From the NCBI GenBank assembly GCA_964477335.1, contig CAYZHI010000001.1, positions 1 through 27,282 on the forward strand: a stretch of DNA of 27,282 nucleotides, in the 5' to 3' direction. Made by a program: the position numbers and the translations under genes. Every line of letters starts with the position of its first letter. Positions within the stretch are counted from its first letter, which is position 1. Shown piece after piece: positions 597 through 27,282 of this stretch. The stretch is from an uncultured Caldilineaceae bacterium. Lineage in GTDB: Bacteria > Chloroflexota > Anaerolineae > 4572-78 > J111. The notes under the pieces were generated by a model. The model did no database searches and had not been told where the DNA came from. It was given only the letters and a program-made list of their open reading frames with translations.

Positions 597-673
597 TGGT
601 GGGCGGTACAAGACTCGAACTTGTGACCTCCTCGGTGTAAGCGAGGCGCTCTAGCCAACTGAGCTAACCGCCC
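597..673 (-). tRNA. tRNA-Val (anticodon TAC), CCA encoded
   Basis: Reverse complement is GGGCGGTTAGCTCAGTTGGCTAGAGCGCCTCGCTTACACCGAGGAGGTCACAAGTTCGAGTCTTGTACCGCCCACCA: acceptor stem GGGCGGT/ACCGCCC, anticodon stem CCTCG/CGAGG with loop CTTACAC, and a GTTCGAG T-loop. Confidence 0.98.
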
Positions 674-2559: not shown

Positions 2560-5157
2560 ATGACAGCCCCTATGCCCGAGCCGATCTCCGCCAACTCCTA
2601 CTCGGTGAGCAGCCTGCCCCGTCCTCTCACTCTTACGCTCCTCTTGCTGCTGGCAGCCGGGCTGCGTTTTTACCAACTGTCCGGCCAGTCGCTCTGGGCC
2701 GATGAGGGTAACAGTGTAGCCCTGGCCCGGCGCGGTTTCGTTGAGATTGCCCAACGGACGGCTTTTGACATCCATCCCCCTTTTTATTACTGGCTACTCA
2801 AGCTGTGGATCGCCATTTTTGGCGAGAGTGAATTTGGGCTGCGGTCCCTTTCGGCCGTATTGGGGATTTTGTTGGTCTATCTGATCTGGGCGCTGGGCCG
2901 GCGGCTGTTTCGCCAACCCATTGGCCTGATCGCCGCTTTCATTGCCGTGCTCTCGCCGCTACAAATCTACTATGCGCAAGAAACCCGGATGTATATGCTG
3001 CTGACGGTGCTGAGCAGCCTGACCGTTTTGACAGCTCTCAACATTTTCAAAGATTATGCAACCGGCAGCCGAAGTCTCATCACCAGCATAATTTATATTC
3101 TGATTGTCACCGCCGGCCTTTACACCCACTACGCCTTCCCCCTCATCATGCTAACCATCAATCTGGCCGCCCTGATCTACTTCTGGCAGAATCGCTATAG
3201 CCTAAATCAAAATTCATCCCTCATCCTTCATCCCTCATCCCTCCACTGGCTCACCCTCCAAATCATCCCCTTGCTCCTCTACCTGCCCTGGCTGCCAACC
3301 GCCTGGCGCCAACTGACCACCTGGCCTGCAGCAGAACAGGCCGAATCCTGGCTGACCCGGCTAGAGACAATTTCGACAACGCTGCTGTTTGGTCACTCCT
3401 GGCCGTTTGAAGGGGATATCTTAGCCGTCACCATCCTGGCTCTTACCTTATTGGCCACATTGTGGCTGAGCTTGAGCAAACAGTTGAATTCGTTTTTCGC
3501 TTCCCGCTTCCCGCCACACGGCCCACGCTCCACGCTCCACGCTCCACGCTTTGCGAGCTTACCCACGCCACTACTCTCACTCAACCTGCTCTGGCTCTGG
3601 TTACTCCTGCCAATAATATTGACGGCCCTGATTTTCAGCCCGGCTTTTCTCAAGTTTCTGTTGGTGGCCGCGCCGCCCCTGGCCCTGTTACTGGCGCTGG
3701 TCATCGACTGGCTAACCTGTAGGGCCAGCGGCTACGGCAAATCAGCTACGCAAAATATTACCTCCTTGCTCAATCCTGATCCAGCTCGCTCCACGCTCCA
3801 CGCTCCACGTTCCCCGTTCCCCGCTTCCCGCGCCCTGCGCCCCACCATAACCGGCTATCTCCTGGGCGGCGCGCTGCTGGCCGCAGTCGTCGCCGGCTCA
3901 ACCATCTCCCTTTACAACTATTACACCAACCCTCGCTTCGCCAGAGACAACTACCGCGCCATTGTCAGTTTTATTCAAGCTGTTGGCGGTCCGGACGATG
4001 CTGTGATCCTGACCGCCGCTGGACAGCAGGACGTGTTCAACTACTACTACCAGCGTGCGACCGCGCCGGAAGCGCCGGTTTTCCCCCTACCGCGCCGGCG
4101 TCCATTGGATGAAGCCGCGACCGTAACCGAACTGGCCCAGATTGAGGCTGAGGCCGCCAAGGTTTATGCCGTTTATTGGGCCACGGAGCAGGCCGATCCC
4201 ACCAGATTGATCGAGGGCTGGCTGGATAACCATCTCTTCAAGGCCACCGACCAGTGGTATGGTAATGTCCGGCTGGTCAGCTATGCCACGCCCCGCTCCA
4301 AAACTGGTCTGGATTTCAGTCCGGTTGATTATCACTTAGGGGAGCAGATCAAGTTAACCGGCTACGCTCTGTCAAATTCTGAGATTACGCCGGGCGATAT
4401 CCTGCAAGTCGCCCTCACCTGGGTTACCGGCTCGTCTCTGCCGGAAAATTACACCGTTTTTGTGCAACTGCTCGATCCGGCCAATCACCTGGTGGGGCAA
4501 CGCGATGCCCCACCGCTTCCGCCCACAACGGAGTGGCCGGCCAATGAGCCGGTGATCGACCAGCATGGCATTTTGGTCGAACCGGGCACGCCGCCGGGCC
4601 AGCATCGCCTGATTGTAGGTTTATACAATAGCCAAACCGGCCAGCGTTTGCCGGTATCCGCCGGCAAGACGGTGAGTGGGGACTTCATTGAATTGGCGGA
4701 AGTCGAGGTGGTTCGCCCGGCGCAACCGCTGCCGCCAGAGGCTTTCCAGATGCAGACGTCACTCAACGCGCCGCTGGGGGAGGTGACCTTACGGGGTTAC
4801 GACCTCTACAAGCTGGGCCAGCGCTCCAGCCCGGAAACGCCGCTACATCCCGGCGATGCCTTGCAATTGGTGGCCTACTGGCAAGTCAACCAGCCGACCA
4901 GCGGATTAGAAGATCAACTCATTATTCAAGTGGTTAGCGCAACCGGAGAAAAGGCATTATTATCGTTTAGCCGGCCGGTAGCAGGCACGGCCTACCCGAT
5001 CGACCAATGGCAAGGTGGCGAAATTGTGCGGGCCCAATATGATCTGGTTTTGAGCAATTTAGCCCCAGGTAGCTATCGCCTGGCCTTGACTCTTGGAGTT
5101 AAACAAAACGAGGGGACGTCACCGACCGTCTATACCCGGCCATTTCACGTAGAATAG
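2560..5157 (+). CDS. GT-C fold glycosyltransferase family 39 (ArnT/PMT-like) with two C-terminal beta-sandwich repeats
   Basis: 865 aa. SLWADEG and DIHPPFYY motifs, SPLQIYYAQETRMY, many TM helices, and two related soluble repeats (LGEQIKLTGY...PGDILQVALTW...PGQHRLIVGLY; LGEVTLRGY...PGDALQLVAYW...PGSYRLALTL). Starts 4 nt after the GH gene stop. Confidence 0.88.
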   Translation: MTAPMPEPISANSYSVSSLPRPLTLTLLLLLAAGLRFYQLSGQSLWADEGNSVALARRGFVEIAQRTAFDIHPPFYYWLLKLWIAIFGESEFGLRSLSAVLGILLVYLIWALGRRLFRQPIGLIAAFIAVLSPLQIYYAQETRMYMLLTVLSSLTVLTALNIFKDYATGSRSLITSIIYILIVTAGLYTHYAFPLIMLTINLAALIYFWQNRYSLNQNSSLILHPSSLHWLTLQIIPLLLYLPWLPTAWRQLTTWPAAEQAESWLTRLETISTTLLFGHSWPFEGDILAVTILALTLLATLWLSLSKQLNSFFASRFPPHGPRSTLHAPRFASLPTPLLSLNLLWLWLLLPIILTALIFSPAFLKFLLVAAPPLALLLALVIDWLTCRASGYGKSATQNITSLLNPDPARSTLHAPRSPFPASRALRPTITGYLLGGALLAAVVAGSTISLYNYYTNPRFARDNYRAIVSFIQAVGGPDDAVILTAAGQQDVFNYYYQRATAPEAPVFPLPRRRPLDEAATVTELAQIEAEAAKVYAVYWATEQADPTRLIEGWLDNHLFKATDQWYGNVRLVSYATPRSKTGLDFSPVDYHLGEQIKLTGYALSNSEITPGDILQVALTWVTGSSLPENYTVFVQLLDPANHLVGQRDAPPLPPTTEWPANEPVIDQHGILVEPGTPPGQHRLIVGLYNSQTGQRLPVSAGKTVSGDFIELAEVEVVRPAQPLPPEAFQMQTSLNAPLGEVTLRGYDLYKLGQRSSPETPLHPGDALQLVAYWQVNQPTSGLEDQLIIQVVSATGEKALLSFSRPVAGTAYPIDQWQGGEIVRAQYDLVLSNLAPGSYRLALTLGVKQNEGTSPTVYTRPFHVE
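3214..3241 (+). repeat. Heptamer tandem array (TCATCCY)x4 inside the GT39 CDS
   Basis: TCATCCC TCATCCT TCATCCC TCATCCC read directly; encodes SSLILHPSSL. Confidence 0.9.
3498..3550 (+). repeat. Composite heptamer array (CGCTTCC)x2 plus (CCACGCT)x4 inside the GT39 CDS
   Basis: Read directly: CGCTTCC at 3498 and 3505; CCACGCT at 3523, 3530, 3537 and 3544. Confidence 0.9.
3787..3830 (+). repeat. Degenerating heptamer array (CCACGCT-type) inside the GT39 CDS
   Basis: CGCT CCACGCT CCACGCT CCACGTT CCCCGTT CCCCGCT TCCCG; encodes RSTLHAPRSPFPAS. Confidence 0.85.
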
Positions 5158-6332: not shown

Positions 6333-7355
6333 ATGGAAGTTTCCGTTATTTGCACGGTTCTCAATGAAGGCCAGAGCATCAACAGATTACTTAGCTCATT
6401 GACTGAACAAAGCCGGCCGGCCGACGAGATTATTTTTGTTGACGGCGGTTCGTCTGACGATACGGTTGCTATTCTGGAGAATTTTGGCCGGGAACATCGT
6501 TTACCGCTACAAGTGATTGTGGCGCCGGGGGCAAATATTAGCCGGGGTCGAAATCTGGCCATTGCAGCCGCGGCCGGTCCGATTATCGCCAGCACGGATG
6601 CCGGGGTGCGGCTGGATAAACATTGGCTGGCAGAGCTGCTGAAACCATTCCAAAACGAGTCGTCCGTCCAGGTGGTCGGCGGCTTTTTTGTGCCGGATCC
6701 GCAAACGGCGTTTGAGGTAGCTATGGGCGCCACCGTTTTACCCCGCGTGTCTGACCTGAACCCGGCCACCTTCTTACCCAGCAGTCGCTCCGTGGCTTTC
6801 CTCAAATCAGCTTGGGATGCAGCCGGCCGTTATCCGGAGTGGTTGGATTATTGTGAAGATCTCATCTTTGATTTTCGGCTGCGCGCTGTTACCGGCCCGT
6901 TTGCATTTGCGCCCGACGCCATCGTCTATTTTCGGCCGCGGAGCAGTCTAGGTGACTTTGTCAAGCAATATTACCGCTATGCCCGTGGAGATGGCAAAGC
7001 GGATCTCTGGCGTAAACGGCACGCCATCCGCTATCTCACCTACCTGGCGGCCTTGCCTTTGTTGTTGATTTTGGGTTTCATTGCTTCGCCGTGGTGGTGG
7101 CTATTTGGAGCCATCCTGGGAGCAGCAGGTTTATTATATACACCGTACCGCCGCTTGCTTGTACTGTGGACATCACTCTCCGGCCTCGGCAAGTTGCAGG
7201 CTATCGCCTGGGTGCCAATTATCAGAGTCAGCGGAGATATCGCTAAAATGATCGGCTATCCGGTAGGATTGAAATGGCGATTAGCTCGTTTAGCTACCCA
7301 ACCGGAACTCCATTGGCGCCAGCAAAGAGCGATTTCCGGCAGCAAATTGAGCTGA
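6333..7355 (+). CDS. Glycosyltransferase family 2 with C-terminal TM segments
   Basis: 340 aa. VICTVLNE, VDGGSSDDT, GRN, TDAG (DxD-like), ED motif (CEDL), QYYRYARGD, and two hydrophobic C-terminal helices. Confidence 0.93.
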   Translation: MEVSVICTVLNEGQSINRLLSSLTEQSRPADEIIFVDGGSSDDTVAILENFGREHRLPLQVIVAPGANISRGRNLAIAAAAGPIIASTDAGVRLDKHWLAELLKPFQNESSVQVVGGFFVPDPQTAFEVAMGATVLPRVSDLNPATFLPSSRSVAFLKSAWDAAGRYPEWLDYCEDLIFDFRLRAVTGPFAFAPDAIVYFRPRSSLGDFVKQYYRYARGDGKADLWRKRHAIRYLTYLAALPLLLILGFIASPWWWLFGAILGAAGLLYTPYRRLLVLWTSLSGLGKLQAIAWVPIIRVSGDIAKMIGYPVGLKWRLARLATQPELHWRQQRAISGSKLS

Positions 7356-7461
7356 GCATCTTATCTGTAACCAAGTTGTAATCATAAGGTTTAAAAAATG
7401 ATGATATAGTCATAGTGAACTTATTCTCAGTTTGGAATACCGGTAGATATGCTTTTTGCGC

Positions 7462-7491
7462 TTGGCCTAATAATTCAAGTTAAGGTATAAT
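7462..7491 (+). promoter_or_regulatory. Putative sigma-70 promoter of kinase 1
   Basis: TTGGCC-18 nt-TATAAT upstream of the kinase gene. Confidence 0.55.
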
Positions 7492-7570
7492 CCTCGTGAG
7501 CGTATATTTGGGGCACTCTGCTAGTGAAACAACCACACAATTGCCGTACCGGATGGTGCAGGAGTACACC

Positions 7571-10252
7571 TTGATCGGGAAAATCCTTGGCAACCGCTAT
7601 AGAGTTCTCCGCGAAGTTGGCAGCGGGGGCATGGCCTGGGTCTACCTGGCTGAAGATATCAAAGATAATAATTTGGTTGCCGTTAAAGTTTTATACCCCC
7701 AATTTGGTGAAGATTTAGCCTATATTCAGCGTTTCAACCGTGAAGCCAAGCTGGCCAGCATGTTGACCGATCCGCACATCGTCCCCGTTTTAGATTACGG
7801 CGCCGATCGGGATATTCATTACCTGGTTATGGAATTTATTGACGGCAAAGATCTCCGCGAAACGCTGGAGGAAAAGGGGCCATATGCCTGGCGAGAGGCG
7901 CTCGAAATAGTGGATCAGCTGGCCACTGCCCTGGAGCACGCTCATCTTTATGGCATTGTCCACCGAGATATTAAACCCCAAAATATGATGTTGACCGACT
8001 CCGGGCTGCTTAAAGTTCTTGATTTTGGCATTGCCCGGATTCCTACATTGCCCTCATTAACCCAATCTGGTTTTGTGGGTTCACCCTACTATGTTTCACC
8101 GGAGCAAGCTATGGGCGAGGAAATTGATACTCGCTCTGATATCTATTCTTCCGGCATCGTTCTCTATGAATTATTGACCGGTCGAATTCCGTTTGACGCC
8201 AAGAGTCCCTGGTCAATTATCAATCAGCATCTCACCAGCGAACCACCTCCACTTAACCTAACCAACACTGATATTCCGTTAGAAGTTGAACAGTTACTGA
8301 GCCGAATGATCGCTAAGCGACCCGAAGATCGATTTCCCAATCCCAGCGCCTTGCGGCGGGCGCTTAGCGCAGTCTTGGCCGGTGAGCCTATCCCGGATAG
8401 CGCGCTCGACACTCAGCCCATTACACCACCCAATAAACAGGCTATGGCCGATAGTTTTTATCAACGGGCCTTGCGGGCAATGGAAGCTGAGGAGTGGGGT
8501 CGGGCTGCCGACTTGCTGAATCAGGTACTCAGTCTGGTGCCATCCCATAAAGAGGCCTCAGCCAAGCTCATGCTGGCCGACCAGAAGTCTTTTGTAGCGT
8601 CGCTCTTCAACGCCGGCAAACGGGCTTTGAAAAACGAACGGTGGGAAGAAGCCATTAATAGTTTCAACGGCATCCTTGAACTTGAACCAGATCGGTTGGA
8701 GGTTAAGGAGTTGCTGGCTCAGGCTCAGCAAGCTCTGGAAAAGGAAAATGCCGAACAACTCATTATTACACTCTACCACGAAGGCCAGGCTCACCTTGAG
8801 GCGCAACGTTGGGACCTGGCAGTAAAAGCATTTGAAGACGTACAGCGTTTGTCGCCGGATTATAAAGAGGTTGAGCAGTTTCTGGCCGAAGCAAGGCGGA
8901 GGGCCAACCCAACGTTCATCCAAAAAATCGTCTCGATGCGTTATGATAATTGGTGGCGCTGGGGGTTGGTTGCCGCCGGGGTGTTGGTTATCTTTGGGTT
9001 GTTTTTCACGTTTGGCACCGAGAATTCCCCGGTAGCGGGAGACGATAACCTCAGAGAAAAGTTAAAGACACTCTATGCCGACGCTCAGGTGGCAATTCAA
9101 AATGATGACTCAGAACGAGCCATTGCCTTGCTTGACCAAATTTTGGCCGAAGATCCAGACTATGCCAATGCGGCCGACCTGAAGCGAGAGCTAACCATTA
9201 CGCCCACCCCCGCCCCAACCAGCACACCCACCGCCACGCCCGACGCCCTGGCTCCGCTCCTGGCTGAGGCCCAGGCTGCGGTAGAGCTTGGCGATTGGTC
9301 TGCCGCGCTGGAACATTTGGCCGAGATCAAAGAGGCAAATTCAGAATACCAACAAGCTCTGGTCATAGCTCTTTTCTGCGACGCCTCGGTCAATCGCGGG
9401 CTGGAAAAGCTGGCCAACATCGCCCCGGCTGACAACGAGCAAGAAATTGTTCAAGCTGCTTTGGCCGATTTTGAGGCAGGCGCGGCGGCCTGTCCCCGGC
9501 GAACCGATTTACGAGATCAGTTAGATCGCTCAACGGCCTATCTTAAAGCGCTTAATACCCCTACCAACGACTATGACACCTTGATCCAAACGTTAACCCC
9601 TTTGGTCGCCGCCGACCCTGACTTTGCAACTGCAAAAGCCAAAGACCTCTTGTATAACGCTCACCTTAATCGGGGTGATGCTCGCCGTGAAGCCGGGGAC
9701 TTTGTAGGCGCCTTGAGTGATTATGAAACGGCCCTGGCCTTAAGAGTAGCCAACCCTAATGAGGCCCAAACCCATCGAGCTGAACTGCTGCTATCTTTTG
9801 GTCAGCAGGCCAGCGTGGACAGCTTAGCTACTCCACCACCCGCAGTCACTGCGACCAGCACCACCGGTGCAGAGGAGCCAGCCACACCGGAACCGGTTCG
9901 GATAAGATTCGGGCCGCCCCAATTAATCAGCCCGGAAAATGATGCCCTTTTTGCCGGAAAATTTGGCGATGTCTACGTTGAATGGGCGCCGGTTGGTTCT
10001 CTGGCGCCGGATGAATACTACGACCTGACGGTGATGCACATCTACGCTGACGAACCGACCTATTGGGGTACGGCCACTCGAGAAACTCGGCTGAAACTCA
10101 ATCCAGAAGATATCGGCGTGGGCAGGGCCGGTCAGGATCGTTTTTATTGGTGGGTAACTGTGCGTAAGGCCAATACTGCGTCGGCGGCCAACAGTTTGGA
10201 TTTACCGGTAAGCCGCCAGAGTGAAGGTAGAACTTTCGTTTGGGCTCCCTAA
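7571..10252 (+). CDS. Membrane Hanks-type Ser/Thr protein kinase: kinase - TPR-like repeats - TM - TPR-like repeats - Ig/FN3-like domain
   Basis: Intact motifs GSGGMAWVY, VAVK, HRDIKPQN, DFGIA, SPEQ and DIYS. TPR-like helices on both sides of the TM at ~8951-9016. Start placed at TTG 7571 because CAGGAG lies 6 nt upstream (ORF track starts at 7496; ATG 7553 is an alternative). Confidence 0.93.
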   Translation: MIGKILGNRYRVLREVGSGGMAWVYLAEDIKDNNLVAVKVLYPQFGEDLAYIQRFNREAKLASMLTDPHIVPVLDYGADRDIHYLVMEFIDGKDLRETLEEKGPYAWREALEIVDQLATALEHAHLYGIVHRDIKPQNMMLTDSGLLKVLDFGIARIPTLPSLTQSGFVGSPYYVSPEQAMGEEIDTRSDIYSSGIVLYELLTGRIPFDAKSPWSIINQHLTSEPPPLNLTNTDIPLEVEQLLSRMIAKRPEDRFPNPSALRRALSAVLAGEPIPDSALDTQPITPPNKQAMADSFYQRALRAMEAEEWGRAADLLNQVLSLVPSHKEASAKLMLADQKSFVASLFNAGKRALKNERWEEAINSFNGILELEPDRLEVKELLAQAQQALEKENAEQLIITLYHEGQAHLEAQRWDLAVKAFEDVQRLSPDYKEVEQFLAEARRRANPTFIQKIVSMRYDNWWRWGLVAAGVLVIFGLFFTFGTENSPVAGDDNLREKLKTLYADAQVAIQNDDSERAIALLDQILAEDPDYANAADLKRELTITPTPAPTSTPTATPDALAPLLAEAQAAVELGDWSAALEHLAEIKEANSEYQQALVIALFCDASVNRGLEKLANIAPADNEQEIVQAALADFEAGAAACPRRTDLRDQLDRSTAYLKALNTPTNDYDTLIQTLTPLVAADPDFATAKAKDLLYNAHLNRGDARREAGDFVGALSDYETALALRVANPNEAQTHRAELLLSFGQQASVDSLATPPPAVTATSTTGAEEPATPEPVRIRFGPPQLISPENDALFAGKFGDVYVEWAPVGSLAPDEYYDLTVMHIYADEPTYWGTATRETRLKLNPEDIGVGRAGQDRFYWWVTVRKANTASAANSLDLPVSRQSEGRTFVWAP

Positions 10253-11657: not shown

Positions 11658-12074
11658 ATGGCTCAAGTTTACAAAACAGATCTGCTTGAAGGCGCCTTGA
11701 AAGAGCTGTGCAGCAAATTAGAAGGGGTCCAGGGCGCGGTCATCGTGAGTATCGAAGGCTTTGTTGTAGCCGCCTACTCCCCGCTTGAGACTGAAATGGA
11801 CGAAGAAGACAGCCCGACCAGTAGTCCACAAGTAGCCGCAATGGCTGCCACCTTGATTGCCCTGGGCGAACGCACCCTCTCCCGGTTGGCCCAAGGTGAG
11901 ATGATCCGGCTACTAATCGAAGGAAATGACGGCGGTATGTTGGTGGTGCCGGCTAACCGGCGCTCATCTGTAGCCGTGATGGTTGGCAGGGAAGCAAAGA
12001 TGGGGTTGGTACTATACGCCTTGCAACAAAGCGCCAAGAAAATTAGTCATATTCTTGAAGGAAGCGTTAATTGA
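11658..12074 (+). CDS. Roadblock/LC7 domain protein (MglB-like) 1
   Basis: 138 aa. GVQGAVIVSIEGFVVAA...VAAMAATLIALGER...GEMIRLLIEG.DG...AKMGLVLY matches the roadblock fold pattern. Confidence 0.92.
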   Translation: MAQVYKTDLLEGALKELCSKLEGVQGAVIVSIEGFVVAAYSPLETEMDEEDSPTSSPQVAAMAATLIALGERTLSRLAQGEMIRLLIEGNDGGMLVVPANRRSSVAVMVGREAKMGLVLYALQQSAKKISHILEGSVN

Positions 12075-12460
12075 TGACCAATTCAGATCAAATCAAAGAT
12101 AATAGTCAACTCTTGACCGAAATTCTTGACGAATTGACATTTCGCAATCCCAACGTTCTCAGCGCCCTGGTTGTAAGCGACGATGGTTTAAATGTAGCTT
12201 CCGGCCTGCCGCACGATGATGATGATACCATTGCCCTGACTGCTTCTGACCTGATGGATATGGCCGCAGATTTCTGTAAGCGTTTAGAACAGGGCCGGCT
12301 GGTTCGGGTGGTGTTAGAAGGCGAACAACGCACCACGATTGTAGTAAATGCCGGCAGCCGTACTGTTCTGGCGGTGCTGGTTCCGGCCGAAGCCAAATTG
12401 GGCTTGGTAGCGCTCTCGATGCGCCGGGCGGCCGATCAAATCGCCGCGATGTTTGGATAA
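12074..12460 (+). CDS. Roadblock/LC7 domain protein 2 (divergent paralog)
   Basis: 128 aa from ATG 12074, overlapping the upstream stop in TGATG. VLSALVVSDDGLNVASGL...GRLVRVVLEGE...AKLGLV. Confidence 0.92.
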   Translation: MTNSDQIKDNSQLLTEILDELTFRNPNVLSALVVSDDGLNVASGLPHDDDDTIALTASDLMDMAADFCKRLEQGRLVRVVLEGEQRTTIVVNAGSRTVLAVLVPAEAKLGLVALSMRRAADQIAAMFG

Positions 12461-12547: not shown

Positions 12548-15067
12548 TTACATACCCCACGACATCCGCTCATTGGTCCATTCACGATCGCCGCCAGCCC
12601 CCCACGGATTGCCTTTGGGAAAGTCAAACAGCTTGGTCACGGCGCCGCCGCCGGTCGAGACCACATACACAGCCCAACCCCCGCCCCGGTCCGAAGCAAA
12701 CGCAACCCACTGGCCATCCGGAGAAATCGTCGGTAAGCCGTCGTTAGAAGTGGGGCTGTTAGAGAGGTTGGTCAATCCCTCACCATTCAGACCCATTACA
12801 TATACTTCCCAATCCCCACTTTCCCTCGAATGCAGGACGACCAGGCTACCCGCCGTATCGGTAGGAGTCAGGCTGGTGCCATCGGCTATCTTGCGGGGTG
12901 TTTCGCCATTGCTGCTGCGTTTGTTAGCCCACGAACCAACGGTAAAAACGCCACAAGATTGACCCCCGGCCCAACTGTTACAACCTTTGTACACAATCTG
13001 GTCGCTCTCAGTCCAGACCGGGTTGCTACCCTGAATTTCACCAACCTGTCCGGCCGGCACCAAAACCCCAAAACGGGCTACATCAATACACGTTTGTTCC
13101 GACTCCTGAGAAGGTGGGATCAAGCCACACTGCACAAAGATATAGGAGTGATAGTTCCCATCAGAACCAATCGCCAATTGTGGATTGTCGTAAGCCAAAC
13201 GATTACCATAAGGGTCATAGGTCGGATGGGAATCGGTCGGTGAGCCACTAACCGCTCTTTCAATGGTCCCGGCGGAGCTTGCTTCAAAAACATTTTCGCC
13301 AAAGCCGCCGCCCTGACCGTTGATGAGTAACTTGGCCCCATCGGGACGAAAATTAGGTTGGCGCGCCCCATCGATCCGGGTAAGTTGTCCACCATCGGGC
13401 ATAGAGACAATGAAAAGATCATACCTGCCACCGCCATTATCGACCGGAAAAGCCAACTTTCCGGAAATAGGTGGTCGTTCGGGTGTTGGGGTGGCCGTAG
13501 GCTCGGCCGGCGGGGCCGGAGTAGGGGTATTGGTGGGTGGACCAGGTGTCGGCGTATCAGTAGGAATGGGCGTGGCCGTAGCTTCTGGTGTTGGCGTTAC
13601 CAGCGCCAGAGCTTCAGCTGTGCTGGCTTCGGCCGTAGCAGTTCGAGCCGTGGCAATCTCAGCCGTGGCCGCTTCAGATGTAGCCAGAAAACTTTGGATG
13701 AGACCCGCCTGCTGTTCAAACTGAGCCGTGGCGGTGTTGGCTATATCAAGCTGAGCCTGGGCGGTCCGGGTGGGAGCAACCACCTCAAGGGCTGCGGCTG
13801 TGCCGGTAGCATTGGCCGCACTCTGGGCCGCTACAGTCTCAGCGGTAGCCGTAGTAGCGGCGTTGTTGGCTGCGGTATTAGTTGCAGCACTAACCGCAGC
13901 AGCCGTTTCTCTTTCCTCAACAGCAGCCGTAGCCGCGGCATCGACCGTGGCCGTAGGCGTTGGCCGGCTCAGGACGAATGCCCCCACTACCCCGGCCACA
14001 ACCAACACCAAGATAATCGCCCCACCAATGGCCAGAGGCAGCACCGGCACGCCCCTGGCCGGAGCTGCAGTGGCTTCAGGAGATAGCACTGTCGCCCCCT
14101 CGCCGGCGCTGCCAAGCGCTGTGGCCGCTTTCTGCCGGCTTCTGAGAGGACCGGTGGGGTGATCAATCTGGTGAATCTTTGGCGGCGGGGCGACCGTTTT
14201 CAGGGGAGTGCTGTGAAGCGTATCGTCGGGGGCCAGGCCAACCGCGTCGCGCAAATCTTTGGCCATTGCTCCGGCACTCTGATAACGGTCATCCGGATTC
14301 TTGCTCATCGCTTTGAGGATGACTTTCTCCACCCCTTCCGGAATGTCTGGATTGATCTTTCGGGGCATCGGTAGTGGTTCACTGATATGCTGCATAATTA
14401 CGGCAAAGGGTGTATCAGCATCGTATGGAACCGTACCGGTAACCATCTCGTAGAGCATCACGCCCAGGGAGTAGATATCGCTGCGCTCATCCCCTCGTTC
14501 ACCCTGACCTTGCTCCGGCGACATATAGGCCGGGGTGCCGGCCAGGGCGCCGGTCTGCGTAAACTGAGTAGCGCCTACAATCCGGGCAATCCCAAAATCG
14601 GTCAGAACGATTTGTCCTTCCTGATTGATCATAACGTTGGCCGGTTTGATATCGCGGTGGACCATGCCGCGGGCATGGGCATAATCAATAGCGCTACACA
14701 ATGCCGTAAAAATTCGGGAGATCTCCTCGTAGGTAAAGGGCTGATTGGCTGCCCGGCGCGCTTTCATTTCCTCCTTCAAAGTCGGGCCGTCGATATACTC
14801 CATCGCCATAAAGTACAGGTCGCCTTCGCGGTCAAAATCAAGCGCCTGCACAATAGCGGGATGGCGTAGTTTACCAATGGCCAGAGCTTCCCGCTCAAAT
14901 CGACCGATGAAATCAGCATCATCGACCAGATGGCTGTGAAGAACTTTGATCCCCACATAGCGATCCAGGCCAGGCTGGTAGGCTTTATAGACTTCAGCCA
15001 TCCCGCCCCGACCTAATCTGGCTACAACTCGATACCGTCCCAGTGTTTTACCAACTAACTCTGCCAT
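12548..15067 (-). CDS. Membrane Hanks-type Ser/Thr protein kinase: kinase - TM - Thr/Ala/Pro-rich stalk - TolB-like (PD40) beta-propeller
   Basis: 839 aa. GRGGMAEVY, VGIK, HRDIKPAN, DFGIA, MSPEQ and DIYSLG. TM at ~13970-14044. Propeller repeats QPNFRPDG, PTISPDGQWVAFASDR at ~12551-13468. Confidence 0.94.
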   Translation of the reverse strand: MAELVGKTLGRYRVVARLGRGGMAEVYKAYQPGLDRYVGIKVLHSHLVDDADFIGRFEREALAIGKLRHPAIVQALDFDREGDLYFMAMEYIDGPTLKEEMKARRAANQPFTYEEISRIFTALCSAIDYAHARGMVHRDIKPANVMINQEGQIVLTDFGIARIVGATQFTQTGALAGTPAYMSPEQGQGERGDERSDIYSLGVMLYEMVTGTVPYDADTPFAVIMQHISEPLPMPRKINPDIPEGVEKVILKAMSKNPDDRYQSAGAMAKDLRDAVGLAPDDTLHSTPLKTVAPPPKIHQIDHPTGPLRSRQKAATALGSAGEGATVLSPEATAAPARGVPVLPLAIGGAIILVLVVAGVVGAFVLSRPTPTATVDAAATAAVEERETAAAVSAATNTAANNAATTATAETVAAQSAANATGTAAALEVVAPTRTAQAQLDIANTATAQFEQQAGLIQSFLATSEAATAEIATARTATAEASTAEALALVTPTPEATATPIPTDTPTPGPPTNTPTPAPPAEPTATPTPERPPISGKLAFPVDNGGGRYDLFIVSMPDGGQLTRIDGARQPNFRPDGAKLLINGQGGGFGENVFEASSAGTIERAVSGSPTDSHPTYDPYGNRLAYDNPQLAIGSDGNYHSYIFVQCGLIPPSQESEQTCIDVARFGVLVPAGQVGEIQGSNPVWTESDQIVYKGCNSWAGGQSCGVFTVGSWANKRSSNGETPRKIADGTSLTPTDTAGSLVVLHSRESGDWEVYVMGLNGEGLTNLSNSPTSNDGLPTISPDGQWVAFASDRGGGWAVYVVSTGGGAVTKLFDFPKGNPWGAGGDREWTNERMSWGM

Positions 15068-15130
15068 AATTTACCTGTTTGGATGTGGTGAAAGTAGTAA
15101 TGAATTGGTATCAATTTTGCCCAAATATAA

Positions 15131-15150
15131 AGGCGAACTATCGTTCGCCT
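15131..15150. repeat. Palindrome AGGCGAAC-N4-GTTCGCCT in the predicted 5' UTR of kinase 2
   Basis: Perfect 8-bp stem between the promoter (15184-15212) and ATG 15067. Confidence 0.7.
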
Positions 15151-15183
15151 CTAATCGTAGAGAGACGCACCACCAACAACTTC

Positions 15184-15212
15184 ATTATAACATTGCCCCT
15201 GTGGTGCGTCAA
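15184..15212 (-). promoter_or_regulatory. Near-consensus sigma-70 promoter of kinase 2
   Basis: Minus strand reads TTGACG-17 nt-TATAAT with an extended -10 TG. Confidence 0.8.
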
Positions 15213-15249
15213 TCAGTCACTTAGAAATTAGCTCCGGCCGATAAGGCTT

Positions 15250-18200
15250 TTAAGGAGCCCAGGAAATTCGTTCTTCCAACCAACCTTTCGAATTGTCGAT
15301 ATCTCGTAAAACTTTGCCATCTGGCGAGCCATTCATATTGAATAGCTTTCTTTGATTACTGCCATCGGCGTTCATCACCCAAACGGCCCATGAGCCGCCT
15401 TGATCTGACACGTAGGCAATACTCTGACCATCGGAAGACCAGGCGGGTAACCCCTCATTACTACCATTATTGGTGAGGCGCTGTGGGCTTGAGCCGTCCG
15501 CATTCATCACCCAAATCTCCCAATTAGTGGCCCCCCGAGCAGATGACATAACGGCAATTTTGCTACCATCCGGTGATACCGCCGGAGCGGTATCGGAAAA
15601 TTCACTGCTGATCTTCCTTTCACCACCGCCGTTGGCCCCCATCACATACAAACCACAGTCACCTGCCGGTGAACAGCCTCTCACCACCAATCGCCCATCA
15701 GGGAAGGTGGCGGGATATTCGCCCTGAAAACCGATGCCATAATCCCCATCGCCTGACTGATTACCAACGAAAATGCGGGGCACCCGATCACCTTCGCGGC
15801 GGCTGGCAAAGGCAAACGAGTAACCATCGGGCGACCAGGTAGGTAGGCCATCTTCCACAAAACGGGTCACCTGCCCTTCGCGGCCGCCGATGAAATCTCG
15901 GAAGAAAATGCCGCGGTTGCCCAAATTCCAGGAGCGATAAGCCAGCAAGCTGCCATCCCGGTTAAAGGCTGGCTGGCTGGCCTCAGTCGCAATAATCGTT
16001 TGTTCGCCGGTGGCAATGTCAGCCATCCAGATATCGTAAACATTGCTGCCAGGATTGAACGCCGGGTAGACAATCCGACCACTCACGGCAGCCGCGTCAC
16101 CTGAAGGCGCAGCCGCTTCAGCAGCCGGCGACGCAGCAACCGGCGCTTCCGCCGTCTCAACCTCGGCCTGAGCCGTGGTAGTAACAGCGCCGGTCGTATC
16201 GGTTGGCTCGGCTGCCGTTGTCTCGGTGGTGGTGGATCCAGCATTATAAGCTTCCAGCTCTTCAGCCGTGAAGGGGATGACCAATTCCTGGCCTAACTGC
16301 AAACTTGTAGGATCGGTAATATTGTTCTTGGAGGTCAACAAGTCGACGTCAACGCCAAATCTGGCGGCTATGGCCAGGAGCGTATCACCTGATTGAATTC
16401 GATAAACCAGCGGCGTGGCCGTGCCCTTGGGAGTAGGTGTAGCTGCCGGGGTCGACCTAGCCTCACCCGTTTTAGCGGGCGTAGGCGTGCTCTTCGAATC
16501 TGCTGCTTCATCTTCTTCGCCTGCAGCCGTGGCCTCAGCGGTCATCGGGGTCGCGGCTTGAGCCGCGGCATCGGTGGAGAAGCTAAAGCTGTTGATCATG
16601 GCTTGAAATTGCGGCTGGACCGCATTCCAGGCCGCAGCCGGGGCCAGGGCCACCAGGTAGTAACCGGCTCCGTCCTTGTTGGTTACAGCCAGGGTAGCAA
16701 TTCCCTGGCCACCCAAATCGTCAGCCTGATACCTGATTTGGGCCGAAGTCCAAATCTGGGAAGCAATACTGATGGTACCTTCATTGAGGGTTTCGGCGTC
16801 GCTTGGAAAATCGGCCAAAACTTCGGTCAATAGATCGGCAATGGCCATCCCTTCATCAGCCGACTTACAGATGATCATGACCGCGTCTTTGGGATTGTCC
16901 AGATCAAGTCCGGCTGAGGAGGGCGAGAACATCCCGCAGAGTTCTTCCTCGGCTTGCTGCCAATTCTCGGGATATTCGACCCGATAGCCCAGGTCGGCGC
17001 TACTGAAGGTAGTCAGAGCAACAGGAGTAGAGGAGACTGCGGCCTCAAGTTCAGGTGTAGCCGTTGGACCAGGAGTGGGCGTGGCATCAGGCGGGCCGGC
17101 ATCAAGGGTAGGGGTAAGGCTGGGCACGGCCACCAACCCGCCGCTGCCCAGGTCATCACTCTGAAACCAACTCCAGGTAAAGATCAACCCAACCGCACAA
17201 GCCAACAAAATGACAACGCCGCCCACAAACGTCCACAAGGTACTGGGGAGTGATCGCAACACGTCACCCACAGTGTAACTTTCCTTCTCTGCTATTTGGG
17301 GCTGGGCGGCAGCGGCTTTACCGACAGCGGCGGCTGAAGTTGCAGCACCGGCTTTTGGCTGGGCCGTTTGTTGGGCCGGCGGCGCGACAGGTCTCACCGG
17401 CGCGGTATCAGCCCGCGCCGCTGCCGCAGCCGGGGTCGGCATCGCCTGGGTCACGCTGCGATGAACTTCGGGCGGGGGTGTAGGTTCCACCCGGCGGACC
17501 GGCTCCATCGGCAACGTGTTTTCGCGAGCTCGACGCTCCTGACCCGGCGCAGGTCTAACCGGCCGGCTGGCTGCTCTGGCCGACGGCGAGCGGGGTGAGG
17601 AGATGTTTGAAGCGGCCGCACCCGTCGGAATGATGATGGTAGGCTCATGCACGGCTTCTCGTTTTCTGGGTGGAACAGTACGATTCGGCTCTGTAACCGG
17701 CCGGCTGCCTCTGGCTACAGGCTGGACCTGGAGCTGCTCCTCCTGGCGTCGCGGCGGCACCTCGACGGGCCGGCTGGCTCGCCGCGGCCGTGGCTCTGCT
17801 GCAGCCGGATGAGAAGTAGATTTTGGCTCAGTAACCGGTTGAGGAGCCGGAGTGGTTGCCTTTGGCTCCGGTTTTGCCTCAGGTTCAGGATCGATGACCG
17901 TAATTACTTCAACATCAACCACCTCAACCGGGGGTTCATCCGCTTCGATAAACTCGGCGACCACCGGCTCACGCTTGGCTTCAGCTTTAGGCTTGGCCGA
18001 TTTTGGCTGCTGTTCGATCACCATTGTGGGTGGAGGCTGCGGACTCTCAACCGGTTCACCCGTGGCGTACTTTAGCCATTGTTGACCATCGAAGTAGAAC
18101 CAACTGCCGGAGTCGGTTGGGTCTTTGGGAGGCATCGGCGGCTGGACAGGCCCGGACTCAGCCGGAGCCGGCTGGTCAAACGTACCGGCTCGAGCCTCAT

Positions 18201-19149
18201 GGGCCGGCGCCCCGGCCTGAGCCTGAGGTTGGGCCTGGCCCGGCATGTCGAACTGGCCAGGTTGAGGCGCTACATAAGGTTGGGCCGGCTGGTAGGGTGG
18301 AGCCGCAGGTTGTTGCGGTTGGCTAAGATTCTGTTGGACATATTGAGCGCTGGCAGCTTGAGTTTCCGGTCCCGGTGAGGTAATGTAAATTTGGATTGGC
18401 TGAGTTGGTGAAGTTGGCTGCTGCGGCTGAATCACATAGCCCTGGTTGGCTGCTGGCGAAGCCGGTTGAGGATAGACGGCTGGCTGGTATGGCGACGTCG
18501 CATAGTTTGGCGCCGCCGATCCACGCTGGGGTTGGTAAGGCTGGGTATAGGGCGCCTGAGCGGAGGAAGCCGGGGTTCGAAATTCATGAGCCGGATGCCA
18601 GCCATTTTGGTCATAGAAATACCATTGGCCGGTTTTCTCACCGATAGCCCAATATCGTCCCTCATCATCCTGGAAAAGTTGGCCGTCAAGCTGGCCCGGC
18701 ATACCAGGCCCGGCATCGTGGCTTTGGGGTTGTAACTGAGCCTGAGCGGGCACATATGCCGTGGTTGGCTGCTGGCGGCCCTGTCCCCGGCCTACAGACG
18801 GCGAGGCGACGGCATCGCCTGCCCCAGGTTTGACCCACTCGCCCGTGTCAGCTTGGTAGTAGTACCAGTCTCCACTTTTGACGCCCCGCTGCCAATAGAT
18901 GCCCTGATCGTCCATAAAGGGCAGCCTGTCGGCCTCGCGGGGGTCGGCCTGTTGCCAGTTCTGGCCATCGTAATAATGCCAACTACCAGACTGAGCGCCG
19001 ATCATCCAATATCGACCCCAGCTATCTTGAAACTGAAGTTTATCTACTTCGGCAATATACCTTGCTTCATCGATCTTTCCGGCCTGAAAATCGCGAGCCA
19101 GAATTCTATAACGCTTCTCAAATCTTATTATTTTTTCTTCAATTTCCAT
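15250..19149 (-). CDS. Large bitopic membrane protein: SHOCT-like helices plus Trp-rich repeats - Pro/Gln/Ala low-complexity region - TM - PsbP/DcrB-like - LysM - TolB-like propeller
   Basis: ~1299 aa from ATG 19149 (GGGA 3 nt upstream; the track starts at TTG 19161). TM at 17164-17238. PsbP-like LGYRVEYPENW...FQAMINSFSF at 16579-17016. LysM YRIQSGDTLLAIAARFGV...LQLGQELVIP at 16273-16404. PD40 repeats (PTWSPDG, PAVSPDG, PAWSSDG) at 15253-16086. Confidence 0.88.
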   Translation of the reverse strand: MEIEEKIIRFEKRYRILARDFQAGKIDEARYIAEVDKLQFQDSWGRYWMIGAQSGSWHYYDGQNWQQADPREADRLPFMDDQGIYWQRGVKSGDWYYYQADTGEWVKPGAGDAVASPSVGRGQGRQQPTTAYVPAQAQLQPQSHDAGPGMPGQLDGQLFQDDEGRYWAIGEKTGQWYFYDQNGWHPAHEFRTPASSAQAPYTQPYQPQRGSAAPNYATSPYQPAVYPQPASPAANQGYVIQPQQPTSPTQPIQIYITSPGPETQAASAQYVQQNLSQPQQPAAPPYQPAQPYVAPQPGQFDMPGQAQPQAQAGAPAHEARAGTFDQPAPAESGPVQPPMPPKDPTDSGSWFYFDGQQWLKYATGEPVESPQPPPTMVIEQQPKSAKPKAEAKREPVVAEFIEADEPPVEVVDVEVITVIDPEPEAKPEPKATTPAPQPVTEPKSTSHPAAAEPRPRRASRPVEVPPRRQEEQLQVQPVARGSRPVTEPNRTVPPRKREAVHEPTIIIPTGAAASNISSPRSPSARAASRPVRPAPGQERRARENTLPMEPVRRVEPTPPPEVHRSVTQAMPTPAAAAARADTAPVRPVAPPAQQTAQPKAGAATSAAAVGKAAAAQPQIAEKESYTVGDVLRSLPSTLWTFVGGVVILLACAVGLIFTWSWFQSDDLGSGGLVAVPSLTPTLDAGPPDATPTPGPTATPELEAAVSSTPVALTTFSSADLGYRVEYPENWQQAEEELCGMFSPSSAGLDLDNPKDAVMIICKSADEGMAIADLLTEVLADFPSDAETLNEGTISIASQIWTSAQIRYQADDLGGQGIATLAVTNKDGAGYYLVALAPAAAWNAVQPQFQAMINSFSFSTDAAAQAATPMTAEATAAGEEDEAADSKSTPTPAKTGEARSTPAATPTPKGTATPLVYRIQSGDTLLAIAARFGVDVDLLTSKNNITDPTSLQLGQELVIPFTAEELEAYNAGSTTTETTAAEPTDTTGAVTTTAQAEVETAEAPVAASPAAEAAAPSGDAAAVSGRIVYPAFNPGSNVYDIWMADIATGEQTIIATEASQPAFNRDGSLLAYRSWNLGNRGIFFRDFIGGREGQVTRFVEDGLPTWSPDGYSFAFASRREGDRVPRIFVGNQSGDGDYGIGFQGEYPATFPDGRLVVRGCSPAGDCGLYVMGANGGGERKISSEFSDTAPAVSPDGSKIAVMSSARGATNWEIWVMNADGSSPQRLTNNGSNEGLPAWSSDGQSIAYVSDQGGSWAVWVMNADGSNQRKLFNMNGSPDGKVLRDIDNSKGWLEERISWAP

Positions 19150-19167
19150 TGTTCCCACCACAAGCTA

Positions 19168-19419: not shown

Positions 19420-21195
19420 ATGAACAAGAAACTTATTTCTATTGGTTTGAGCATTCTATTGCTAGCCACCATTATAATTGGAACAGCTCTCTGGATAAGA
19501 GTCTATTTTGACTCTATCAAAAATTACCGCTCGCCGCTACGCCAGGTTGAATTAGCGCCGCAACCATCGATTTCGCCCGGTCCCACCAACCGGGTGGTGA
19601 TCATCCTCATTAGTGGTTTAGGTTATGATGACACCCTGGCCTTGAACTTGCCCGTGCTGGAGCAGCTCAGGCAGGCCGGCGCGACCGCCGCAATTGAAAG
19701 CATTCCACCCAGCTATGCTCAAACGACCTGGGCTACTTTGATTACCGGCGCCCCCCCCGAAACCAACGACGCCGCCCCGGTGGACCTGCCCCTGGCCGAG
19801 ATACACTCCCTAGAAACCGATACCATCTTTGCCCAAGCCCAGGCAGCCGGTCTAAAAACGGCGCTGCTGGGACTGGCTGCCTGGTCAAAGTTGCTCCCCC
19901 AAGGCCAAATCAATCACAGTTTCTTCGTCAATGAGGCCGGGCCTGCGGCTGATCAGGCCATCTTTGAAGCAGCTTTGCCGCTCATTGAAAATGACCAGGC
20001 CGACCTACTGCTGTTTCATTTTACCCAGGTTGATGAAGCTGCTCAAGCGTCGGGCGGCACGGCCAGCGAAGCTTACCGCCAGGCTGCGGCCCAGGTCGAT
20101 GCTTATCTAAATCAAATCAGCGCCGCGATGGACCTCAATCGCAGTGTTTTGATCGTTTTGTCTGACCACGGTCACATTGCCAAAGGGGGGCACGGGGGCA
20201 ACGAAGTTGAGGTTATCTGGCAGCCCCTGGTCATGATTGGCGAGAACGTTATTCCCGGCAATTACAGTGACGTTTCTCAAACAGACGTGGCTCCGACTAT
20301 CGCCACATTGTTAGGTCTGCCTGTGCCTACTGCCGCCCAGGGGCGAATTCTGTTCGAGCTGTTACATCTGACCCAAGCCGAACGGGCCACGGCGCAGATG
20401 GCGCTTACCCGGCAGCGAGTTGCGCTAACCGAGGCTTACTTGAGTCAAATTGGCGGGCCTGAGTCGAAATTGCCGGAACAGTTGTTGGCCGACCTCGACC
20501 GGGCTCAGGGCGCGCTGGAAAAAAATAACTTGGGGGGGGCATTCCAACTGGCTGGCTTAGCCCAAACGGAGGCCGACGCCCAAATGGCTGCGGCTCGCCA
20601 CAAGCGCTTGAGTACTGAACAGTTCAGAAGGTTCATTGGGGCTAGTCTCATCGCCCTGCTCTGGTTTGTAACCATGTGGCACCGCCGCGGCTTCCACGCC
20701 GGCTTAATTGTGATTGCCGCCCTTCTGACCGTGGCCTTGTACCATACGCTTTACCAGATACAGGGCTACAGTTACTCCCTCAGCTCGGTGAAACCATTGA
20801 CCGAACTCCCCCTTGAGATTGCCCGTCGAACGGCCGTCAGTCTGCTGGTTGGTGGGGGGGTGGTGCTGGTGGTGCTGATGCTGGTCAAAGAGGATAACTG
20901 GCTCACCTTGCTCGGTAGTGGTTATGGCTTTGGGTTGCTGGTTACCTTTATCTTTGCGTTGCCGCTCTTGTGGGCTTTTTGGCAGAACGGTTTTGTGGTC
21001 ACCTGGCATCTACCCGGGGTATTGCCGGCCTTTTGGCAGCTAACGGCGCTTTTTGAAGTTTTGGCGTCGGCCATTTTGGCCCTGCTACTACCCTGGCCGA
21101 TTATGATGTTGAACCTATTCGTCAGCCTGACTCGCCATTACCTCAGCGGGACCCGCTCGCAAAAGTCCGATGTTCTGCCGGGATTACATTTGTGA
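19420..21195 (+). CDS. Alkaline phosphatase/NPP superfamily membrane protein with degenerate metal ligands and C-terminal TM bundle
   Basis: 591 aa. N-terminal TM, RVVIILISGLGYD, TWATLITG, LSDHGH, GGHG, QTDVAPTIATLLGLPVP..AQGR, and ~5-6 C-terminal TM helices. Confidence 0.85.
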   Translation: MNKKLISIGLSILLLATIIIGTALWIRVYFDSIKNYRSPLRQVELAPQPSISPGPTNRVVIILISGLGYDDTLALNLPVLEQLRQAGATAAIESIPPSYAQTTWATLITGAPPETNDAAPVDLPLAEIHSLETDTIFAQAQAAGLKTALLGLAAWSKLLPQGQINHSFFVNEAGPAADQAIFEAALPLIENDQADLLLFHFTQVDEAAQASGGTASEAYRQAAAQVDAYLNQISAAMDLNRSVLIVLSDHGHIAKGGHGGNEVEVIWQPLVMIGENVIPGNYSDVSQTDVAPTIATLLGLPVPTAAQGRILFELLHLTQAERATAQMALTRQRVALTEAYLSQIGGPESKLPEQLLADLDRAQGALEKNNLGGAFQLAGLAQTEADAQMAAARHKRLSTEQFRRFIGASLIALLWFVTMWHRRGFHAGLIVIAALLTVALYHTLYQIQGYSYSLSSVKPLTELPLEIARRTAVSLLVGGGVVLVVLMLVKEDNWLTLLGSGYGFGLLVTFIFALPLLWAFWQNGFVVTWHLPGVLPAFWQLTALFEVLASAILALLLPWPIMMLNLFVSLTRHYLSGTRSQKSDVLPGLHL

Positions 21196-27070: not shown

Positions 27071-27220
27071 TTTTGATCCAACCCACTGAATTTATTGAGG
27101 ATAATTCATCGGCAAGGAAATACAGCATCTTCGAGGATACTTTTAGACACCTCAACCAGATCAAAGAGCCGTCCAATTGTTGTATTGTAACACTAAGGTC
27201 CAGAAAATAAAAAAAGCCCT

Positions 27221-27282
27221 CTTGGCAATGACCTACTCTCCCAGAGGGTCGCCCCTCAAGTACCATCGGCGCTGGCGGGCTT
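27221..27282 (-). rRNA. rrf: 5S rRNA, 3' half (runs off the right edge of the window)
   Basis: Reverse complement AAGCCCGCCAGCGCCGATGGTACTTGAGGGGCGACCCTCTGGGAGAGTAGGTCATTGCCAAG contains the conserved 5S elements GCCGATGGTA and GGGAGAGTAGG. The exact 3' end is uncertain by a few nt. Confidence 0.95.

Follow-up and report, generated by a model that had tools for sequence, protein, structure and literature searches.

The question raised by this locus is whether two neighbouring membrane proteins work together at the cell wall. The analysed stretch (the window, 27,282 nucleotides) belongs to an uncultured Caldilineaceae bacterium. Within positions 12548-19149, two co-oriented genes lie on the minus strand, separated by 182 bp. 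They encode two single-pass membrane proteins of Caldilineaceae-like Chloroflexota, a Ser/Thr kinase (K) and a kinase-less LysM protein (L). In a preliminary description of the DNA, L had been taken for a co-receptor or substrate that associates with K through paralogous propellers. The answer given here draws on the architectures, predicted topology and folds of the proteins, the frequent adjacency of their genes, a separate K promoter and a propeller phylogeny. The adjacency of L and K is real but no more conserved than ordinary local synteny. A specific receptor/co-receptor pairing is weakly supported, because many signalling proteins in these genomes carry the same propeller. Tentatively preferred, at slightly under an even chance, is that K and L belong to a lineage-expanded envelope-signalling family, in which L would be a peptidoglycan-tethered scaffold and possibly a substrate of K, by analogy with MapZ and StkP.

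Both proteins end in related TolB-like propellers (316-aa alignment, 29% identity, E=5e-25), and the strings quoted for them earlier were all found (ISGKLAFP/VSGRIVYP, ARQPNFRPDG/ASQPAFNRDG, GCNSWAGGQSCG/GCSPAGDCG and W..ER.SW). For phylogeny, 104 propellers were aligned, of which 44 were L-type, 25 were K-type and 35 were of other types taken from these loci and genomes. Trees were computed by neighbour-joining (NJ) with 200 bootstraps; they are distance-based and unrooted, and the set of others was recruited with L-like patterns. Labels of the form L001 denote loci; a scan of species-representative genomes gave 75 loci. The L propeller was 24-32% identical to K propellers and 37-50% identical to the 35 others, and K propellers shared 23-37% with these others. 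In six trios from the same genome or locus, identities were 36-45% between L and the other propeller, 25-30% between L and K, and 24-26% between K and the other. The L clade and the K clade were each recovered in 200/200 bootstraps and {K+L} in 0/200. Instead, the K propeller joined that of the K-like kinase of L054 (198/200), then those of L066 and L073, an FHA-TPR protein and a TPR protein (177/200). A database search with the LysM-plus-propeller part of L returned 3277 relatives, including several kinases with propellers 41-45% identical to that of L. Since L has closer relatives than K, the sister relationship assumed in the preliminary description is rejected; the resemblance between the two propellers does not exceed that to other genomic PD40 proteins (24-32% for L-K against 36-50% for L and at least 35 others, some of them in the same genomes).

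These results bear directly on a co-receptor model, in which ligand-binding L heterodimerises with K specifically via the paralogous propellers, like a plant LysM receptor-like protein with CERK1. Such a model is improbable. It would fit the homology of the two propellers and the adjacency of the genes in 27/37 species. LysM is moreover a bona fide glycan-binding domain that ties a protein to peptidoglycan, and in 5/6 genomes K is marginally closer to the L of the same genome (25-30%) than to other propellers (24-26%). However, the propellers are not sisters, and that of L has much closer matches elsewhere, some of them in other kinases; homology is also no predictor of heterodimerisation. The shared Cys pair and the W..ER.SW ending, which had been read as a link between the two proteins, are indeed present in both, but are common to the whole propeller family. 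The GC...CG pair occurs in 44/44 L, 24/25 K and 19/35 other propellers. The likeness to the plant proteins (CEBiP, LYM1/3), kinase-less LysM membrane proteins beside a receptor kinase, is one of concept only. The plant receptors have three LysM domains against a single LysM stretch in L, on which the NFP/LYK LysM models score far under their cut-offs, and the kinase lineage is unrelated; the resemblance is an analogy and not a homology.

In these genomes the propeller, ending GW.EERISW, recurs as the C-terminal ectodomain in many proteins with a single TM helix. It is combined with different cytoplasmic heads: FHA, Hanks kinase, or zinc ribbon and/or SHOCT-like helix plus Trp hairpin. The ectodomain middles before it are TPRs, a 3-keto-disaccharide-hydrolase-like domain, SH3, low-complexity linkers, or PsbP-like plus LysM. 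The relatives with propellers 37-50% identical to that of L carry FHA, kinase, zinc-ribbon, TPR and SH3 domains. In L039 (4990-5832) and L041 (16165-17004) a gene for an FHA-transmembrane (TM)-propeller protein directly follows L and K, so that three co-oriented propeller genes stand in a row. The cluster in L054 consists of a Trp-hairpin-TPR-propeller gene, a propeller gene and the K-like kinase. FHA-TM-propeller proteins with a 3-keto-disaccharide-hydrolase-like, TPR or other middle were seen in L039, L041, L060, L061, L062, L066 and L068.

The N-terminal end of L is likewise widespread. Its first ~65 residues have matches in 1012 representative proteins, most of them N-terminal, and 5/9 large matching proteins tested have TPRs plus PD40. 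After this unit of SHOCT-like helix and Trp hairpin (~65 aa; window 18577-19149; P0217-P0356), the order is often zinc ribbon, TM helix, TPRs and PD40 propeller. The unit looks like an undescribed domain family. A distinct LysM-propeller family of ~630-690 aa, 36-39% identical to the L ectodomain, was found in L080, L081 and L082 (genes at 7001-~9000). The gene order VTT/DedA - TPR - LysM-propeller - Peptidase_M23 is the same in 3/3 loci examined. This Peptidase_M23 context links LysM-propeller ectodomains with the hydrolysis of peptidoglycan and not with kinases.

Synteny was scored over 37 species loci with enough downstream sequence. In 27 of these 37 informative species, a K orthologue lies directly downstream of L, co-oriented and with a gap of 71-487 bp; Caldilinea aerophila metagenome-assembled genomes (MAGs; L013, L014) have the pair as well. 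The conserved neighbourhood in closer relatives comprises RmlD, a phosphodiesterase-like gene, L, K, two Roadblock/LC7 genes and sometimes inositol monophosphatase (IMPase). It continues past the Roadblock/LC7 genes with a second receptor kinase with TPRs, GT2, an SH3 protein and PMT_2. Where both flanks of L were informative (n=30), both neighbours were present in 19 loci, only K in 4, only the phosphodiesterase in 3 and neither in 4. K was retained after loss of the upstream phosphodiesterase-like neighbour of L in L023, L029, L037 and L041. The L-K pair also outlasts local rearrangement in these four loci and in L039.

The intergenic region between L and K contains a promoter-like element of the extended -10 type (TTGACG-N17-TATAAT with TG extension). 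The same hexamers were found in 21/27 orthologous L-K spacers (L001-L010, L015-L017, L022, L023, L027, L029, L037, L039, L041 and L056). Because they persist in spacers that are otherwise unalignable, K very likely has its own promoter, as had been suspected. Such strict promoter conservation is unusual, the proteins of these species being only 42-98% identical. In several orthologous loci a hairpin lies just 3' of the L stop codon. A terminator scan of the window gave no terminator-like hairpin between L and K, and read-through from L into K may occur there.

Several of the observations weigh against a functional link between K and L. An adjacent K is lacking in 10/37 species, where unrelated genes follow L (AI-2E transporter, transglutaminase, CofD, ABC permease or P-type ATPase). 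Conversely, the close relative L079 has K without L upstream, with the downstream Roadblock-Roadblock-kinase block retained. As a baseline, adjacency of L and the phosphodiesterase-like gene was counted in 24/35 loci, against 26/36 for L and K. The expected co-conservation was thus seen, but the pair is kept no better than this other neighbour, and inherited synteny could therefore explain it. Given the conserved K promoter and the hairpins after L, co-transcription is not required. L012, without K downstream, retains the candidate phospho-motifs of the L tail, which therefore do not track K adjacency. Conserved Thr motifs (EPTIIIPTGA, RENTxPMEP and VTQ) had been considered as evidence of a K-L link and were dropped because L012 keeps them. 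A kinase-LysM fusion, as a Rosetta-stone case, was also sought, and none was found among the 120 best of the 3277 relatives of the L ectodomain; kinase-propeller and FHA-propeller fusions were common.

An explanation without any direct coupling is a serious possibility, if a doubtful one. L would then be an independent wall-remodelling, division or envelope-scaffold protein and K an unrelated receptor kinase, and a neighbourhood of ~15 genes would simply have been inherited. Conservation of the block RmlD-phosphodiesterase / L-K / Roadblock-Roadblock-(IMPase)-kinase+TPR-GT2 / SH3 / PMT_2 in the same species as L-K points this way. So do the similar frequencies of the two adjacencies, the separate promoter of K, the species with L or K alone, and the LysM-propeller family of ~630-690 aa in a peptidoglycan-hydrolase, not kinase, context. 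Less easily reconciled with it are the survival of L-K in the rearranged loci with differing flanks and the repeated clustering of propeller genes with phospho-signalling heads (FHA, kinase).

As to the proteins themselves, K was correctly described as having an intact Hanks kinase. All catalytic motifs were found (VGIK38-41, HRDIKPAN137-144, DFG157-159 and SPE183-185) together with a glycine-rich loop LGRGGMAEV, and by these motifs the domain is catalytically intact. K orthologues are 64-98% identical in this domain. The extracytoplasmic linker is weakly conserved across orthologues and gave no Pfam match at E<=10. For the propeller of K, the fold is predicted from homology to the modelled L propeller. 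A K-specific insertion in it holds an extra Cys pair, present in 21/25 K orthologues and in 0 L or other propellers. Some K orthologues are broken by frameshifts into 2-4 gene calls (L078:6955-9437 and L079:6335-8870), which accounts for many of the short 'hypothetical' or 'TolB' proteins in the K-propeller search. Kinase-less K-type propellers, first suggested by that search (mostly matches of 280-530 aa), were discarded where they were frameshift-split gene calls (L078, L079), as many were. Stand-alone K-type propeller genes in L076 and L077 appear genuine.

K was compared with the known receptor kinase classes. PASTA domains had been reported as lacking, and no Pfam match to PASTA was found in K. 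The kinase and juxtamembrane part is closest to the PASTA kinases PknB/PrkC/StkP; the NF033483 model gave 381.6 bits, under the equivalog cut-off of 450, with the match limited to profile positions 7-445. Without PASTA repeats and with a score under the cut-off, K is not a member of this class, despite the similarity. PknD of Mycobacterium tuberculosis, as credited to Good et al. 2004, is said to be a Hanks kinase with a single TM helix and a six-bladed extracellular propeller. K has the same domain order (kinase, single TM helix, predicted extracellular six-bladed propeller), and the PknD sensor domain structures 1rwi/1rwl were listed among PDB entries in the fold search. K nevertheless falls outside the PknD family, because its repeats are of the PD40/TolB type and not NHL and its score with the equivalog NF009651 (170.6 bits) is far under the cut-off of 839; it also differs in its 160-aa Ala/Thr-rich spacer. 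A role of K in cell-wall-linked signalling is plausible. With the TolB equivalog TIGR02800, L scored 121 bits and K 55.5 bits (cut-off 343). L and TolB of the Tol-Pal system have the six-bladed PD40 propeller fold in common. K and L differ from TolB in being anchored by a TM helix. Their propellers are TolB-fold but not TolB, because the N-terminal domain of TolB is missing, the scores are below cut-off and no Tol-Pal genes are nearby (none in the window).

The database protein P0001 is identical to L (1299 aa); an alternative in-frame start (GTG at 19161) would give 1303 aa. About 90 full-length homologues were found with 40-84% identity, all from Chloroflexota MAGs labelled Anaerolineae, Anaerolineales, Caldilineaceae, Ardenticatenia or Caldilinea aerophila. 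Their database names are only 'LysM peptidoglycan-binding domain-containing protein', 'PD40 domain-containing protein' or 'TolB protein'. The make-up given for L earlier holds for the Trp-rich repeats, the disordered tail and the PsbP-like and LysM domains; the tail is, however, Pro/Ala/Gln-rich (P19 A16 Q10%) and not Pro/Ser/Thr-rich. In the N-terminal module the W/G/Y columns are invariant among homologues. It corresponds to no Pfam family, with only sub-threshold choline-binding and WW matches, and gave no significant fold match in the PDB (best E=0.037, TM score about 0.1). In the fourth Trp-hairpin repeat, G352/W354/Y356/D358/G359/W362 are nearly invariant. Disorder was modelled for aa ~200-340, where the predicted local distance difference test score (pLDDT) is <50. 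Short motifs stand out in the disordered region in the consensus of 26-59 homologues: EVVDVEVITV, EPTIIIPTGA, RRARENTxPMEP and VTQ. They are missing from short L forms (~730-790 aa), which occur in some clades and are reduced, ahead of the TM helix, to the helices and a single Trp hairpin. The family core can therefore do without the long disordered region. In the short forms the tail differs whether K is adjacent or not.

The TM helix of L is preceded by Arg and followed by Asp-Asp, and W643 and G648 are invariant in it. By this charge bias, the N-terminal 640 residues are predicted to be cytoplasmic (N-in), and the LysM, PsbP-like and propeller domains would face outward. PF01789 matched whole L with 22.0 bits (sub-threshold) and the isolated PsbP-like domain with 29.1 bits (cut-off 23.5), as well as this domain in 15/16 L orthologues. 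A profile of the domain matched cyanobacterial PsbP 2xb3 (E=1e-4). The LysM domain is conserved across about 90 L homologues, and its sequence matches the PDB LysM chains Ecp6 and CEBiP. The propeller model was aligned to TolB structures over 287 columns (Foldseek E about 4e-18, root-mean-square deviation 3.0-3.4 Å); by sequence, L matched TolB chains with E=5.7e-23. The Cys pair C1163/C1169 of this propeller is invariant.

In the preferred explanation, a family of single-pass envelope proteins would have expanded in Caldilineaceae and other Anaerolineae, with K and L both belonging to it. Through the shared propeller its members may gather at one envelope ligand or site, with L presumably tethered to peptidoglycan via LysM. 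K would phosphorylate nearby cytoplasmic regions, and the disordered region of L, with its conserved Thr-containing motifs, is one plausible substrate or scaffold. FHA-headed relatives might read the phospho-marks. K and L would thus be linked by shared location or ligand and by cytoplasmic phosphorylation, not by a dedicated propeller-propeller pairing of sister paralogs. L could also act as a decoy or negative regulator that occupies the same envelope ligand via its related propeller and titrates the signal away from K and other propeller receptors. All that speaks for such a decoy is the shared propeller family and the absence of an enzymatic domain from L. With L the most conserved and most widely distributed member, with an elaborate conserved cytoplasmic module that a passive decoy would not need, and with K and L propellers so divergent (24-32% identity) that a shared ligand is not assured, it is very improbable.

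The best precedent for K and L, as an analogy, would be StkP-MapZ (LocZ) of Streptococcus pneumoniae, a receptor Hanks kinase and a kinase-less bitopic protein. MapZ has a largely disordered cytoplasmic N-terminus, which StkP phosphorylates on two Thr, and its ectodomain binds sacculi (PMC4931243, PMC7055233). L shows a MapZ-like layout by prediction: N-in bitopic topology, a disordered cytoplasmic N-terminal part and an ectodomain with LysM, a domain of wall-binding type. The two systems differ in that there is no sequence or domain homology; MapZ has an ectodomain fold of its own and StkP senses by PASTA domains, whereas K and L both have TolB-like propellers. LpqB/MtrB of Actinobacteria offers another parallel: next to the gene of the membrane sensor kinase MtrB lies that of LpqB, an extracytoplasmic accessory protein that has a propeller-like domain and modulates the kinase. 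MtrB is of the histidine kinase type, LpqB is a lipoprotein without cytoplasmic part, and the likeness to K-L is by description only.

Coordinates of the features are collected below. Rfam and tRNA scans gave no matches inside 12548-19149.

Features of the window in order of position. L residues follow the 1303-aa numbering from GTG 19161; AF2, AlphaFold2; ORF, open reading frame.
Feature	Position	Strand	Basis
tRNA-Val (anticodon TAC)	597-673	-	window
Gene K, single-pass receptor Ser/Thr kinase, 839 aa	12548..15067	-	ORF and translation; Pfam Pkinase 162 bits, PD40 40 bits
K C-terminal PD40/TolB-like propeller, aa 531-839	12551..13477	-	BLASTP to L propeller E=5e-25
K extracytoplasmic Ala/Thr/Pro-rich low-complexity linker, aa 367-530	13478..13969	-	A30 T22 P11%
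K TM helix, aa ~342-366	13970..14044	-	sole hydrophobic segment in K; Kyte-Doolittle 19-residue maximum 2.78
K Hanks-type kinase domain, aa 12-268	14264..15034	-	Pfam PF00069, 162.4 bits (cut-off 31.7), E=1.7e-47
Promoter-like element TTGACG-N17-TATAAT, TG extension, L-K intergenic region	15184..15212	-	11/12 consensus matches
Gene L, single-pass LysM/PsbP-like/propeller protein, 1299 aa	15250..19149 (ATG 19149)	-	ORF
L C-terminal six-bladed TolB-like propeller (predicted), aa 1026-1303	15253..16086	-	PD40 98 bits; AF2 pLDDT >90
L LysM domain, aa 920-963	16273..16404	-	PF01476 47.2 bits, cut-off 20.9; pLDDT about 90
L PsbP-like alpha/beta domain, aa 713-861	16579..17025	-	PF01789; AF2 pLDDT >90
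L TM helix, aa 642-666	17164..17238	-	sole hydrophobic segment in L
L cytoplasmic disordered region, Pro/Ala/Gln-rich, ~440 aa	17242..18576	-	pLDDT <50; composition
L fourth Trp-hairpin repeat SGSWFYFDGQQWLKY, aa 350-366, inside disordered region	18064..18114	-	two predicted strands, pLDDT about 76-84
L cytoplasmic N-terminal module, two helices (SHOCT-like) and three Trp-rich three-stranded beta-hairpin repeats	18577..19149	-	AF2 pLDDT >88 for aa 1-110 and 165-190
5S rRNA gene, 3' part only, cut by window end	27220-27282	-	window

Further observations were made on the surroundings of the two genes. The phosphodiesterase-like gene is an alkaline-phosphatase-superfamily (phosphodiesterase/sulfatase-like) gene of 591 aa at 19420-21195 on the plus strand, divergent from L and usually accompanied by RmlD. 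Its retention beside L in 24/35 species suggests a link of L to envelope polysaccharide or teichoic-acid-like chemistry. On the other side, the second receptor kinase (918 aa; kinase, TM helix and TPR ectodomain; 7496-10252) and the tandem Roadblock/LC7 genes (11658-12074 and 12071-12460) lie on the plus strand and converge on K. These genes are conserved with K in many relatives, including L079, which has no L. The window shows no small GTPase gene. In L020 the order is L-K-K' (7035-10202), where K' (about 1058 aa) has extra ectodomain segments before a K-type propeller 48% identical to that of K. Tandem 7-nt repeats (CGCTCCA/CCACGCT, 3-4 units each) were found at 3498-3558 and 3773-3833, inside the PMT_2 glycosyltransferase gene (2560-5157, plus strand). 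GC skew over 3001-4000, which covers this repeat stretch, is -0.30, and slippage by one 7-nt unit would shift the reading frame.

Each of the domains is known, and so are propeller-bearing receptor kinases. The L family, the Trp-hairpin module in its cytoplasmic part and the modular toolkit built around the propeller appear uncharacterised, and a literature search on Chloroflexi threonine kinase, LysM and beta-propeller found nothing relevant. To our knowledge, nothing has been established experimentally about envelope signalling in filamentous Chloroflexota. What results for K and L is a well-supported annotation together with a hypothesis, a sound and testable lead in which the premise of dedicated sister propellers does not hold. 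The multilayered envelopes of filamentous Chloroflexota are only now being described (PMC13319060).

A more far-reaching picture, speculative and on the unlikely side, would be a trans-envelope Ser/Thr network of Anaerolineae/Caldilineae. There the shared TolB-like propeller would gather writer (kinase), reader (FHA) and scaffold or substrate (Trp-hairpin plus disordered region) at one wall site, with L-K as the most conserved core pair and the LysM of L tethering the assembly to peptidoglycan. If so, the SHOCT-like/Trp-hairpin unit of the cytoplasmic part would represent an adaptor domain both new and widespread. Apart from this picture, the broader pattern of one propeller joined to kinase, FHA and Trp-hairpin heads would illustrate how a bacterial lineage built up a receptor family through domain shuffling. 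Since the pair is present in Caldilinea aerophila MAGs, joint action of K and L may be testable in the cultured species. If K and L do work together, they would form a cell-wall circuit comparable to those of StkP-MapZ or PknB but independent of PASTA domains.

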